64,000 bases of DNA from a virus (IMGVR_UViG_3300031999_000008:26904-90903); one strand, 5' to 3'; counted from the first letter of the stretch, positions 120 through 57,404 are shown. Program-made: numbers and translations. The notes: a model not told the origin generated them from the letters alone.

Positions 120-443
120 ATGCCCTTCAAGAGTGAGAGACAAAGACGTCTGTTCCATGTCAAAGCCGACAAGGGTGAAATCCCCCAATCAACGGTTAGC
201 GAGTGGGAACACGCTACTAAAAATAAGAAGGCCCTCCCTGAGCACGTAGCTAAGGAAGCCTACGCTCAAGGCAAAAGAGCAGCAGCTGTCAAAGTAGGCT
301 TCATGGAAGACGTAGATCCTGAAGACTTACCTGCGCCGTTAAAGCATCGTAAAGAAAAATATCTACGTGAGTTGTATCGACTAAACGCAGCCACGGGATT
401 GCCTGCTGGCGGACTTATTTCGGAGGATTCCCGTGAAAGCTAA
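120..443 (+). CDS. Hypothetical virion-associated protein (MPFKS-type N-terminus, internal YAQGKRAAAVKVG tag)
   Basis: ORF track; GAGG RBS upstream; tag motif shared with other ORFs. Confidence 0.6.
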   Translation: MPFKSERQRRLFHVKADKGEIPQSTVSEWEHATKNKKALPEHVAKEAYAQGKRAAAVKVGFMEDVDPEDLPAPLKHRKEKYLRELYRLNAATGLPAGGLISEDSRES

Positions 444-900
444 GACGTCTATGTTCGCAGTTGTGGCTATGGCCTCGTTTCTGTTGGCTGGTTGTGACTT
501 CCTAAAAACAACGACGGGCCAAGCCATCATGGACTACGTACTTCAAGCGGTTGTTCTTATCGTGACGCCTGTCGTGTTACTGCTCGCTAAACGCGTTGTA
601 CAGATTGTCGAACAAAAGACAGGTTTAGCCGCTTCAGCGCACCAGCTAGCCCTCGTAGACGACGCTGTGTATAAAGGCGTTGCCTACGCGGAAGAGCAGG
701 GCCGTAAAGCCTTTAAAGTCAACGAGCCTATTCCTGACGGGAATATGAAGCGGCAAATGGCAACTGAATTTGCATTGGATATGGTAAAGAACCACAATGC
801 AGCCGAAATTAGCCGCGACTACCTACTGAAGATGGTCGAAGCACACGTAAACCTTGCCCGGGATCCCGCCGATAAGAAGGTAGCCAATGCGCCTGTATAA
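433..900 (+). CDS. Holin LL-H-like membrane protein with lipobox
   Basis: Signal peptide ending LLAGC, one TM helix, 'AVYKGVAYAEEQ...G..K..MA' pattern typical of LL-H holin-like proteins. Confidence 0.5.
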   Translation: MKAKTSMFAVVAMASFLLAGCDFLKTTTGQAIMDYVLQAVVLIVTPVVLLLAKRVVQIVEQKTGLAASAHQLALVDDAVYKGVAYAEEQGRKAFKVNEPIPDGNMKRQMATEFALDMVKNHNAAEISRDYLLKMVEAHVNLARDPADKKVANAPV

Positions 901-1129
901 CCATGGCCGTAGAGCGCTACTCATGAAGCTAGGGCTCGACGCCGAAGCGTTCACCCAAATGGTTCAACAAGACGATACTGCTGACTTCGTAAATCAAAAT
1001 ACGACGTCTAAAGACATGAACCAGAATCTGGATAAAGCGCCTGCATGGGGTAGCCAGAGCTCCATGGAAGCTGGCGACGCAGGCACTCGCAATTACCAGA
1101 TGGGTCTTCCTCGCGCAGGCGCGGTGTAG
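887..1129 (+). CDS. Small tagged hypothetical protein
   Basis: N-terminal YNHGRRALLMKLG tag; coupled to neighbours. Confidence 0.6.
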   Translation: MRLYNHGRRALLMKLGLDAEAFTQMVQQDDTADFVNQNTTSKDMNQNLDKAPAWGSQSSMEAGDAGTRNYQMGLPRAGAV

Positions 1130-2940
1130 TGTCTAAAACGCTGGGTCAGTATTTGTTGGATGGGGCGATACCCGTTGGGTACCGCCCTAAAGACGTATAT
1201 TCTAAGTCCGATCTACGTAGCAATATGCTGCGATTAGCTAAGGATGATCCAGCGCGTTACACAAAAACAATTACAGAAGTAAAGCGTTTAGGCGATGAAT
1301 TCGCCACTAATTTAGGTATATCAGTAGGCCTTGATGATATCGAGCCCTTGTATAAAACACGCGACGCCATTACCAAGCCCGCGTTGGCTCGCGTTAAAAA
1401 AGCCAAGACCAAAACAGAGCGGCAAGACATTATCTCGGAAACTCAGGATAAACTCCTAGAGTACGCCATGAAGCACCCAGGAACCATGGGTGAAATGGCA
1501 CGGTCCGGCGCACGGGGTAGCTCGCTCCAACTCATGCGTGCCGTAGGCGCACCCGCCGCAAGTAGCGACGAAAAAGATGATCTACAAGGTTGGCTGACAA
1601 CGCACAGTTATGCGGAAGGCCTTCGTCCTTCAGAGTGGTGGGCCAATAACCGTGAAGCCCGAATGGCTGCGGTAAAGACTCAGAATGAGGTCATGGAGCC
1701 CGGCGATTTATCTAAGATTTTGATCAACAATACCAGTGATCAAATCGTGACTATATCGGATTGTGGCACCAAAAACGGCCTACTTATAGCGCTTACGGAT
1801 TCACATATTCTAGATCGCTTTACGGCACGCACCGAACACGGACTGCCTCGCAATACGCTCATGACTCCCCGGGTTGTAAGCACGCTACAGCAGCAAAAAG
1901 TCGAACGCATGTTGATGCGGTCACCTATGACTTGCGAAGCGCAGCACGGCATCTGCCAACATTGTGCAGGTTTGAGTACGCTCGGCGTCATTAACAAGAT
2001 CGGTGAAAATTTAGGCATTCGTGCAAGCCAGTCGTTAGGGGAACCCCTTACGCAACTCGCGCTGAATGCTAAACACGGCGTCCGTCTTTCAGGTGCTAAC
2101 CCGCTAGAAACCACCGGGCTAGAGGGCTTTCGCAAGCTGCTAGAATCCCCTGCGTCCTTCAAGAATAAAGCGACGCTCGCTCCTGAAGACGGCGTCGTTA
2201 CCGCGATTTCAAAAGCACCTCAGGGTGGCTATTACGTCACGGTCAACGAAAGTAAGACGTACGTGTCCCAGGGGTTAAAACCTACTGTCTCTATAGGCAC
2301 GACCGTCCATGCTGGCGACGTTCTATCTGAGGGGACGCCGCGCCCCGATGAGGTTGTGCATTACAAAGGCCTCGGCGCAGGCCGTGCCTACCTCGTGAAT
2401 AAGCTCGGCGGCATCTACAAAGATAGCAAAATAAACGTAGATCGTCGGCATTTTGAAGTACTCGCGAAGTCTACGCTCAACCACGTACGTATTGAGGACG
2501 TGGACGATGCTGACTCTGCGGCACATGGTCTCGTACGTGGTGATGTAATCGACTACAACCGTTATCGTAATATCGTGGGCGACAAGACACAGCACACGGA
2601 TATAGATAACGCTGAAGGTAAGTACCTCGGTGAGGGTGTATTGCACCATTTGGCAGGTACGCAGATTACGCAGCCAATGCTAGCTGAAATAAAAGATGCC
2701 GGATTTACTAAGGTACGCACGGCTAGCCAGGCGCCTGTTGTGTCTGCGGTCATCGCGCCTGCGACGCGTAATCCTCTGTTGAATCCCGACTGGCTTGTTC
2801 GGATGGGACATCGTTATTTGAAGCAGTCCCTTTTAGAGGGAGCCCAAAAGGGACAAACTTCTAACATTCACGGCACGAGTCCGGTCCCCGGTCTCGTATT
2901 CAGCGGGGAATTCGGTGAGGGTGAAAATGGCCAATACTAA
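1129..2940 (+). CDS. Phage multisubunit RNA polymerase beta'-like subunit, C-terminal half
   Basis: Motifs SVGLDDI, MARSGARGS, SYAEGL, DCGT, RSPMTC-x6-C-x2-C (Zn), ASQSLGEPLTQLALNAKHG (trigger loop), RHFEVL; no NADFDGD in this ORF. Confidence 0.93.
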   Translation: MSKTLGQYLLDGAIPVGYRPKDVYSKSDLRSNMLRLAKDDPARYTKTITEVKRLGDEFATNLGISVGLDDIEPLYKTRDAITKPALARVKKAKTKTERQDIISETQDKLLEYAMKHPGTMGEMARSGARGSSLQLMRAVGAPAASSDEKDDLQGWLTTHSYAEGLRPSEWWANNREARMAAVKTQNEVMEPGDLSKILINNTSDQIVTISDCGTKNGLLIALTDSHILDRFTARTEHGLPRNTLMTPRVVSTLQQQKVERMLMRSPMTCEAQHGICQHCAGLSTLGVINKIGENLGIRASQSLGEPLTQLALNAKHGVRLSGANPLETTGLEGFRKLLESPASFKNKATLAPEDGVVTAISKAPQGGYYVTVNESKTYVSQGLKPTVSIGTTVHAGDVLSEGTPRPDEVVHYKGLGAGRAYLVNKLGGIYKDSKINVDRRHFEVLAKSTLNHVRIEDVDDADSAAHGLVRGDVIDYNRYRNIVGDKTQHTDIDNAEGKYLGEGVLHHLAGTQITQPMLAEIKDAGFTKVRTASQAPVVSAVIAPATRNPLLNPDWLVRMGHRYLKQSLLEGAQKGQTSNIHGTSPVPGLVFSGEFGEGENGQY

Positions 2941-3319
2941 TTATTACGAAGCGGGGCGTAGCGCCGCGCGAGCCCGTTTTGAGAAAACAGCTTTGATCGG
3001 CGCAGCCATTGGTGCCATGAAGGCCAAAGAAATGAATCCCAAAGATCCTCAACTCTTTCCCGGTGCTATTGCGGGTGAGTTAGGTGGTTTGGGTGGCATG
3101 GCGCTCGGACAAACCGTAGGGGCTGTAGGCGGAGGCTTAGTGGGAGCTGCCGCAGGTATTCCACTGAGCATCCTGCTCAAAAAACCCGAACTACTTTCAC
3201 ATCTCGCAAACGCCGGTGCAATGGTGGGTATGGTAGGCGGCGGCATCGGGGGCTTTGTGCACGGCGCTAGGCGCTTGCCCGAAGCGGTCCTTAAAGATAC
3301 CCGTAAGCCAAAGAAGTAA
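2927..3319 (+). CDS. Tagged glycine-zipper membrane protein
   Basis: Start MANTNY; YEAGRSAARARFEKTA leader followed by GxxxG-rich hydrophobic helices. Confidence 0.65.
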   Translation: MANTNYYEAGRSAARARFEKTALIGAAIGAMKAKEMNPKDPQLFPGAIAGELGGLGGMALGQTVGAVGGGLVGAAAGIPLSILLKKPELLSHLANAGAMVGMVGGGIGGFVHGARRLPEAVLKDTRKPKK

Positions 3320-3349
3320 AACCGAGTATGTTCCTGAACACAACAGTTA

Positions 3350-3378
3350 TTGGGCTAGACAATCAACCAGCCTATGAT
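3350..3378 (+). promoter_or_regulatory. sigma70-like promoter TTGGGC-N17-TATGAT
   Basis: 17-bp spacing, intergenic. Confidence 0.5.
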
Positions 3379-3442
3379 TAACGTGCGGCCTCTAGAGACG
3401 CAGAGAGCTACCATGTCGAATTCACCGTTTTTTAAGCGAGCC
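3350..3442 (+). repeat. Direct repeat copy 1 (93 bp; promoter plus first 10 codons of ORF 4252)
   Basis: 8 mismatches versus 4189-4281 by manual alignment. Confidence 0.9.
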
Positions 3443-56930: not shown

Positions 56931-56986
56931 AAAACACAGAAGCCCCAGAAGACACGAGTGTTAACTCGGCTTTCTGAGGCTCTTCT
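56931..56986 (-). terminator. Terminator/attenuator-like hairpin directly upstream of the tRNA-like RNAs
   Basis: AGAAGAGCCTCAGAAAGCCGAG...CTCGTGTCTTCTGGGGCTTCT followed by GTGTTTT. Confidence 0.6.
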
Positions 56987-57019
56987 TGCAGATCGTTGCG
57001 GGCGTTGAAACCGCTGCGG

Positions 57020-57037
57020 TCAATGCGAGGTGTTCAT
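57020..57037 (-). other. Leaderless minigene M-N-T-S-H-stop(UGA)
   Basis: ATG begins 7 nt after the -10 box. Confidence 0.5.
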
Positions 57038-57043
57038 ATGTGT

Positions 57044-57072
57044 ATCGTATGCAGGGATCCCACGGGTGTCAA
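57044..57072 (-). promoter_or_regulatory. sigma70 promoter TTGACA-N17-TACGAT
   Basis: Perfect -35, 17-bp spacer. Confidence 0.75.
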
Positions 57073-57083
57073 CAACAAAAAAG

Positions 57084-57404
57084 TCAAACCGCGTAAGACA
57101 GCGGGGTTCGTAGGTTTTCAGGGACCTGCTGCTGCAACCGATAGTTCAGTTCTTTAGAGCTTGCAGGCCATCTATACAGGGGCTTTCCCATAATGCCCTG
57201 ATACGCCAAGGCACTATGCGCTTGCGCTTTAGCCGGATCTACGAGGGGCTGTGCTGCTTTCAAAGGGGCTATGGCCTGTTCGGCTGCGTGAACACCCGCA
57301 GGCATAGACGAACCGGGCAGCATAGCCTTTACGTTTAAGGCTGCGAGTTTACCCAACCCGAGTACTTGTAGAGCCTGCAACGCGCCACTTTGTCGATGTA
57401 ACAT
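57084..57404 (-). CDS. Tagged hypothetical protein
   Basis: RQSGALQALQVLGLGKLA tag variant. Confidence 0.5.
   Translation of the reverse strand: MLHRQSGALQALQVLGLGKLAALNVKAMLPGSSMPAGVHAAEQAIAPLKAAQPLVDPAKAQAHSALAYQGIMGKPLYRWPASSKELNYRLQQQVPENLRTPLSYAV

Follow-up and report, generated by a model that had tools for sequence, protein, structure and literature searches.

Does a short peptide that recurs on otherwise unrelated phage proteins mark them for packaging into the head? The question is raised by a stretch of 64,000 nucleotides of viral DNA (the window), corresponding to bases 26904-90903 of the 90.9-kb viral contig IMGVR_UViG_3300031999_000008 (genome label G000), in which an earlier note had described a recurrent peptide of about 13 residues, here called the tag, and had proposed it as a capsid-packaging signal. 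The analysis of this window, its relatives and sequence databases establishes that the tag is a real, clade-restricted, unannotated and portable motif, carried by about 10 otherwise unrelated accessory proteins per genome in uncultured phages of ~180 kb that encode their own RNA polymerase. A role in prohead targeting or docking, comparable to that of the capsid-targeting sequence (CTS) of phage T4, is argued for by analogy and is held tentatively.

The tag, its carriers and its range

The consensus of the core motif, [YAF]-Y-x2-G-x-[RK]-x-A-[LF]-x-K-L-G-[LFM], describes a stretch of 13 residues that is presumably helical. A six-frame scan of the contig yielded four matches to a strict pattern and five to a relaxed one, all of which lie in the window, on the plus strand and within real open reading frames (ORFs; gene models were taken from ORF calls only). 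Reversed-sequence controls of the contig gave no pattern match, and those across genomes gave 0-1 per genome. An initial hidden Markov model of 14 columns proved too narrow and lost members in the related genome G003, and the pattern was used instead in combination with a weight matrix trained on 23 tags. The leave-one-out matrix scores of the members ranged from 12.9 to 34.9, compared with a 99.99th percentile of 8.3 for a background of 82,202 windows. A RuvC-like N-terminus in G003 (L031, 5224-5787, minus strand) fits the pattern by chance with a matrix score of 19.7, indicating that single pattern matches need to be checked in their context.

Gly4 is invariant in the alignment of the 23 tags, and Tyr1, Ala8, Lys11, Leu12 and Gly13 are each at least 90% conserved, the Gly and Ala being held invariantly at an i, i+4 spacing. 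Position 0 favours an aromatic residue or Ala, positions 5-6 favour basic residues, position 9 favours Leu or Phe and position 14 a hydrophobic residue. The conserved residues are encoded by differing synonymous codons among the copies, indicating that selection acts on the peptide and ruling out a DNA-level repeat as the source of the motif.

All 14 strings quoted in the earlier note were recovered where it had located them; its list of tagged ORFs was sustained in part (Table 1). The core copies in orf120, orf887, orf18645, orf28230 and orf46813 stood, as did those of orf48981, orf57084 and orf40282, the last being conserved in its family. The segment in orf2915 was borderline, and those at 3503 in orf3374, 4282 in orf4213, 5542 in orf5521, 14476 in the scaffold and 45254 in the helicase scored at chance level. 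The N-terminal placement described there was likewise correct for most copies, Tyr1 standing at residue 3-9 in nearly all N-terminal carriers (at residue 17 in one, perhaps owing to the start-codon call), but internal (orf120) and C-terminal (orf48981) copies also occur.

Table 1. Tag copies and associated genes in the window, with weight-matrix scores of the tags.
Feature	Coordinates	Strand	Carrier	Score	Remarks
Tag, internal	261-299	+	orf120 (120-443)	29.9	Closes with K-V-G
Tag, residues 4-16	896-934	+	orf887 (887-1129)	34.2	80-residue acidic protein, just 5' of RNA polymerase beta'-C gene
RNA polymerase beta'-C piece	1129-2940	+			28% identity to Arash Gp216
Borderline variant, longer spacing	2945-2992	+	orf2915	6.8	Gly-rich protein in insertion slot; ends K-T-A
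Prohead protease	12104-13957	+			gp21/gp175-like N-terminal domain, long K-x-A-rich C-terminal part
Three scaffold-like head-core proteins	14017-15610	+			K-x-A-saturated
Major capsid protein, HK97-type	16147-17073	+			Single K-x-A, residue 31
Tag, N-terminal	18666-18704	+	orf18645 (18645-19397)	34.2	3' end of gene overlaps InPase gene start
InPase-domain protein	19394-20317	+			
Tag, N-terminal	28248-28286	+	orf28230 (28230-28592)	32.4	Followed by Gly-zipper-like segment
Degenerate tag, N-terminal	40294-40353	+	orf40282 (ATP-grasp fold)	9.3	K-R-A at 40345-40353
Weak tag-like segment near C-terminus	41826-41864	-	orf41742	11.2	
Decayed tag remnant	45254-45289	+	SNF2-like helicase (45227-46717)		In N-terminal extension
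Tag, N-terminal	46828-46866	+	orf46813 (46813-47250)	30.6	Gly-zipper_YMGG protein, directly 5' of LigD-like gene
LigD-like phosphoesterase + ligase	47252-49030	+			Between two small tagged Gly-zipper genes (G000)
Tag, C-terminal, Asn for Lys at position 11	49428-49466	+	Ends orf48981 (48981-49472)	21.9	Highest-scoring non-seed window; K-E-G two residues before tag
Probable degenerate tag, N-terminal	57357-57395	-	orf57084	15.6	No Tyr, Val at position 11, then K-L-A; 3 of 82,202 windows score that high

Once the tag was masked, no mutual similarity and no paralogy remained among the carriers within one genome. An MPFKS domain is followed by the tag and tail A in G000 and P0033, and by the tag and tail B in G001 and P0041, and either pairing of tag and tail also exists as a gene by itself; as read from these arrangements, domains are exchanged exactly at the tag between genomes. 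The masking and the domain swaps together uphold the portability that the earlier note had claimed. The SNF2-like helicase aligns to Gp217 of Salmonella phage Arash from residue 27 on, with 37% identity, identifying the tag region as an N-terminal add-on absent from the Arash orthologue. Its tag segment, which is closed by the sole K-x-A of the helicase (45281-45289), scores at background level in G000 but reaches 17.0 in the G001 orthologue, and was therefore assigned as a decayed copy. Throughout, the tagged genes are variable and the flanking structural genes conserved.

The carriers comprise the kinds of protein that the earlier note had listed, namely an ATP-grasp fold, a helicase and Gly-zipper proteins. 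The fold of orf40282 was assigned using AlphaFold2 (AF2) and Foldseek, every top match being an ATP-grasp ligase; residues 3-26 are helical in the model, at low confidence (predicted local distance difference test, pLDDT, 30-36). Its family retains the N-terminal tag down to 34% identity, with a conserved order of tag, 3-6 residues and K-x-A (K-x-A present in seven of eight members), and more distant ATP-grasp homologues are located on contigs of 65-156 kb. The nearest structural neighbours of orf40282 (40282-41745) are graspetide macrocyclases (AMdnB, MdnC, PsnB), LysX/ArgX, RimK and Ddl, and two Gly-rich hydrophobic segments flank its ATP-grasp domain. Gly-zipper families or Gly-rich uncharged segments were found in ~30-40% of carriers versus 2-10% of other proteins. 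A subset passes the cut-off of a Pfam Gly-zipper family (PF13441, PF13488, PF05433), for example orf46813 (32.8 versus 28.9) and the G001 protein at 24026-24925 (29 versus 25), and no Gly-zipper-type segment was found in the helicase, in the InPase partner or in the acidic proteins that bear tail A or tail B. In every genome examined the InPase gene either adjoins a tagged gene or is fused to a tag: a tagged gene stands before it in G000, G001 and G004, and it bears a C-terminal tag itself in G003, where the LigD phosphoesterase domain is also fused to the tag. The matrix and pattern check found no tag in capsid, portal, polymerase or terminase proteins, extending the earlier note, which had not seen it in the capsid protein. 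No shared promoter was seen 5' of the tagged genes.

Relatives with 44-70% identity keep the tag in orthologues. The complete ~180-kb relative G001 contains 10 pattern matches, nine of them real, among which are the N-terminal tags of five consecutive genes; five real matches were found in G003 and three in G004, L007 is also tag-bearing, and the pattern scan found none in G002, Arash or Vibrio phage D69. When 1.84 billion protein representatives were searched exhaustively with the tag profile, 22 matched at E <= 1e-3, of which 21 were real and fell within the same few families of this clade; none of the 22 is named, and LigD_N, located on the protein body, is the sole Pfam family on any of them. 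This search returned this clade only, and no sequence relatedness to the T4 CTS was found. Searching 5.8 billion proteins by word index produced 15 matches. No close relatives were found among GenBank phages, either by DNA or by tagged proteins, and a related-locus search with orf18645 found none. The ESM Atlas yielded merely unnamed viral clusters with scores below 0.9, PDB sequence searches with orf40282, a 403-residue G001 carrier and the protease gave no match, and Pfam and PHROG searches with the tagged proteins returned nothing besides Gly-zipper, InPase and LigD_N.

The head module and the K-x-A motif

The window belongs to a fragment of a phage with relatives of up to 180 kb. Gene order is as in Arash and D69, running from the portal through a fused RNA polymerase beta/beta'-N gene, small genes, beta'-C, large virion proteins, the protease, a scaffold-like trio and the capsid protein to the neck and tail. 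The T4-like setting assumed in the earlier note found support in that the phage encodes a gp21-like prohead protease, which matches the PHROG head maturation protease with E = 8.7e-7 and gives tblastn matches to annotated capsid maturation proteases. The top Foldseek match of this protein is T4 gp21, a weak match (E = 0.1) obtained from a low-confidence AF2 model (pLDDT 47).

In six contiguous head-core proteins Ala occupies position +2 of 61 of the 124 lysines, whereas 16.7 would be expected (a 3.7-fold enrichment), and the head-core proteins of G001 show the same at 54 of 109 lysines. Gly at this position is depleted (1 observed versus 8.1 expected), and the grouping of the two residues as K-x-[AG] in the earlier note is not supported. 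The K-x-A sites coincide with the invariant lysines of the scaffold alignment. Since T4 gp22 is cleaved at multiple sites (PMC5694885), K-x-A was read by analogy as a cleavage code, and it is probably the prohead-protease code of the whole phage group. Within the six proteins (4213-5520, 10024-10797 and 12104-15610) K-x-A is usually followed by Ser or Ala. It also occurs at equivalent places in the heads of the cultured phages Arash (L022) and D69 (L042), for example at the protease N-terminus and at about residue 31 of the capsid protein.

The same motif is found beside the tag. K-x-A stands right before the tag Tyr in four divergent MPFKS-tag proteins and follows the tag by 2-6 residues in the orf40282 family, the G001 carriers 24937 and 31268, orf57084 and the G001 helicase; one tag ends in K-L-A instead of K-L-G. 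In orf120 the residues right before the Tyr are K-E-A (252-260). Among families with an N-terminal tag, K-x-A lies within 14 residues downstream in 2 of the 15 that keep Lys11, versus 4 of the 5 that lack it (Fisher p = 0.014, a post-hoc test on few families). These arrangements favour protease sites as the boundaries of tags but fall short of proof. No depletion of K-x-A was seen in the putatively packaged folded proteins.

The conserved C-terminal Y-x2-G...K-x-A segment of the scaffold has a matrix score of 3.9, and the thought that the tag might mimic this segment is put forward as an idea only. A cut after the Ala of K-x-A at 252-262 or 4273-4284 would expose an N-terminal Tyr or Phe, which are N-end-rule residues in bacteria; it is pure speculation that such a residue could limit the lifetime of the cargo after ejection.

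Proposed function and alternative explanations

Tagged genes occupy the gap between the polymerase genes, the region that follows them and the interior of the head-to-neck module; in every tag-bearing genome, two small ones separate the genes of the polymerase subunits. Arash Gp217, the orthologue of the helicase, was detected in purified virions with 38 unique peptides and 1148 spectra, at an abundance comparable to that of RNA polymerase beta' and the capsid protein, and both Arash polymerase proteins, Gp216 included, are among the most abundant proteins of those virions (PMC10585845).

CTS-like prohead targeting or docking is the function preferred here, with a probability of roughly 0.45, on analogy with T4. 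The tag would be a clade-specific short linear docking helix, with Tyr, Gly, Ala and Leu on one face providing a small-x3-small packing surface and with K-L-G plus the hydrophobic residue resembling a helix C-cap. It would mark accessory proteins for the prohead interior, together with the virion RNA polymerase, by the logic of the T4 CTS. Some enzymes bear the tag directly (the helicase and the ATP-grasp protein; in relatives the InPase and the LigD phosphoesterase), and the small carriers may act in trans as adaptors or as parts of an ejection channel. Candidates for such a role are the pair of acidic proteins encoded amid the polymerase genes, the protein 5' of the InPase and the Gly-zipper proteins. 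The K-x-A sites bounding tags would represent the putative cleavage code of the gp21-like protease, in which case maturation would free the cargo from its tag or from a degraded core. What the analysis demonstrates is the motif, its portability and clade restriction, its connection with K-x-A and its association in the genome with head and virion-polymerase genes; docking to a receptor, packaging, cleavage and ejection we infer.

The comparison with known systems is close in some respects and not in others. As in the T4 CTS of IPI-III and Alt, a short peptide is common to otherwise diverse accessory proteins (PMC3012670, PMC5694885); a gp21-type prohead protease, a degradable core and hypervariable cargo genes are present here as in T4, and in several families the tag is followed by the putative protease motif. 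In contrast to the CTS, to which it has no sequence similarity, the tag is 13-17 residues long with a Gly/Ala helix face, ends in K-L-G and not in the core-protein code K-x-A, and occurs in internal and C-terminal copies; small tagged proteins stand beside untagged enzymes, and its function is putative. In phage P1 the N-terminal residues of DarB (at most 30) direct this helicase-containing antirestriction protein into the head (PMC9024508), and the SNF2-like helicase similarly bears an N-terminal tag; however, the Dar proteins share no consensus (PMC9024508), whereas here a strict consensus is found on about 10 proteins per genome. Phages phiKZ and SPN3US likewise have a packaged RNA polymerase and many protease-processed inner-head proteins, and the propeptides of their ejection proteins are thought to target the prohead; unlike the tag, these are mostly longer than 100 residues, are cut at A/S/G-x-E and share no short motif (PMC5694885).

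Several points weigh against prohead targeting. The cultured relatives Arash and D69 lack the tag, as does Arash Gp217 itself; all tag-bearing phages are metagenomic and the virion proteomics come from untagged Arash, whose proteome lists 116 proteins and is thus permissive (PMC10585845). A six-gene tagged cluster of G001 lies among small early-looking genes, the internal and C-terminal tags differ from the T4 sequence, and about a third of carriers have Gly-zipper segments, which are also compatible with a membrane role. Removal of the tag by the protease is made uncertain by the difference between the K-L-G end and the K-x-A core code and by the scarcity of nearby K-x-A among strong tags, most of which have none, and the Lys11 complementarity carries the weakness of its post-hoc origin. 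A complex prediction that combined the N-terminal 40 residues of orf887 with the capsid protein and the main scaffold-like protein scored 0.00 and speaks neither for nor against docking.

The main rival takes the tag to be a juxtamembrane or oligomerisation helix, the small-x3-small face of which joins tagged proteins into a membrane-associated complex, either an ejection channel or a membrane-bound factory, with capsid targeting not being primary. The enrichment of Gly-zipper or Gly-rich segments in carriers (~30-40% versus 2-10%), the two such segments flanking the ATP-grasp domain and the invariant i, i+4 Gly and Ala all accord with it, but several carriers lack such segments (the helicase, the InPase partner and the acidic proteins with tail A or tail B), and the adjacency of K-x-A and the presence of the helicase orthologue in virions are left unexplained; it is a minority possibility of some substance, and one that can coexist with packaging. 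That the tag binds some other common partner than the head core, such as the virion RNA polymerase (for hitch-hiking or regulation) or a host protein, is unlikely. Here the two small tagged genes between the polymerase subunit genes in every tag-bearing genome are suggestive, as is the finding that the SPN3US virion polymerase must assemble for any subunit to be packaged (PMC5694885). Against this, most tagged genes are not beside polymerase genes, Arash and D69 have orthologous polymerases and no tag, and no match to a known bacterial linear motif was found.

Two further explanations carry very little weight. A leader peptide for a phage ATP-grasp ligase, as in graspetides, a class of ribosomally synthesised and post-translationally modified peptides, is brought to mind by the proteins closest in structure to the orf40282 model, which include AMdnB, MdnC and PsnB, all macrocyclases, as well as LysX and RimK. 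It is highly improbable, as the enzyme itself is tagged, and it is contradicted by the complete genome of G001, which has at least 10 tags yet no ATP-grasp homologue (tblastn, E <= 1). Chance, a compositional artefact or a DNA-level repeat may account for the five looser variants of the earlier note that fall within the background and for the RuvC-like N-terminus in G003. For the core set this is contradicted by the near-empty reversed controls, the large gap between member and background scores, the varying synonymous codons and the conservation in relatives at 44-70% identity, and practically no credence is given to it.

Prohead targeting can also be extended to a position-independent cargo-loading peptide of a tailed-phage head, usable at either terminus of a protein or within it. 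Such a peptide would act in cis on enzymes and in trans via small tagged adaptors beside untagged enzymes (the virion RNA polymerase, the InPase and the LigD-like ligase), with release by protease destruction of a K-x-A-rich receptor core and not only by tag cutting. This encapsulin-like logic inside a myovirus is a rather doubtful extension. Encapsulin cargo-loading peptides are short, stand at either protein end and load unrelated enzymes into a shell of the HK97 fold. The tag differs from them in its consensus and in its setting, a tailed phage that encodes both scaffold and protease, and any binding of the tag to the capsid protein is conjectural.

Very few phages, T4 and P1 (DarB), have capsid-targeting sequences established by experiment; this tag would add a sharp 13-residue consensus that about 10 cargoes per genome carry naturally and at which domains have been swapped in nature. 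Should it prove to signal packaging, it would offer a ready means of bringing foreign proteins into the heads of large phages, and the injected proteome of the phage group could be read straight from sequence; that proteome would include the SNF2-like helicase, the ATP-grasp enzyme, the InPase and the LigD-like ligase, all probable counter-defence or takeover factors. The K-x-A code extends to cultured Arash and D69 and is therefore testable now.

Neighbouring features of the window

A 93-nucleotide direct repeat (3350-3442, plus strand, and 4189-4281; 91% identical) comprises 24 nucleotides of upstream sequence and a 23-codon leader that stops exactly at F-K-R-A, and fronts the inserted gene orf3374 and the conserved core gene orf4213. 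This makes it a second grafted leader, distinct from the tag, and its expression signals were duplicated with it. A hot spot of insertion (2915-4159) adjoins the 3' end of the RNA polymerase beta'-C gene; it holds two extra genes in G000, none in G001 and G004, the virion helicase in Arash and a small HNH-like gene in D69. Between the two small tagged genes at the start of the window, an ORF of 155 residues (433-900) has a lipoprotein-type signal with a hydrophobic stretch ending in L-A-G-C, and no homologue of it was found in G001-G004.

The sequence TATACTA[CG]G occurs in three copies only, each 14-16 nucleotides ahead of an ATG: at -4303, outside the window on its upstream side, for the fused RNA polymerase gene, at 40268 for orf40282 and at 42805 (minus strand) for orf42166. 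It is a possible promoter specific to the phage, or a possible leaderless start signal. An antisense ORF of 330 codons over the capsid gene (16138-17130, minus strand) is longer than the real gene, misled a longest-ORF gene call and is an artefact. Inside the neck and tail block, a patatin-like phospholipase (22908-23795) and the InPase-domain protein are candidates for ejected effectors.

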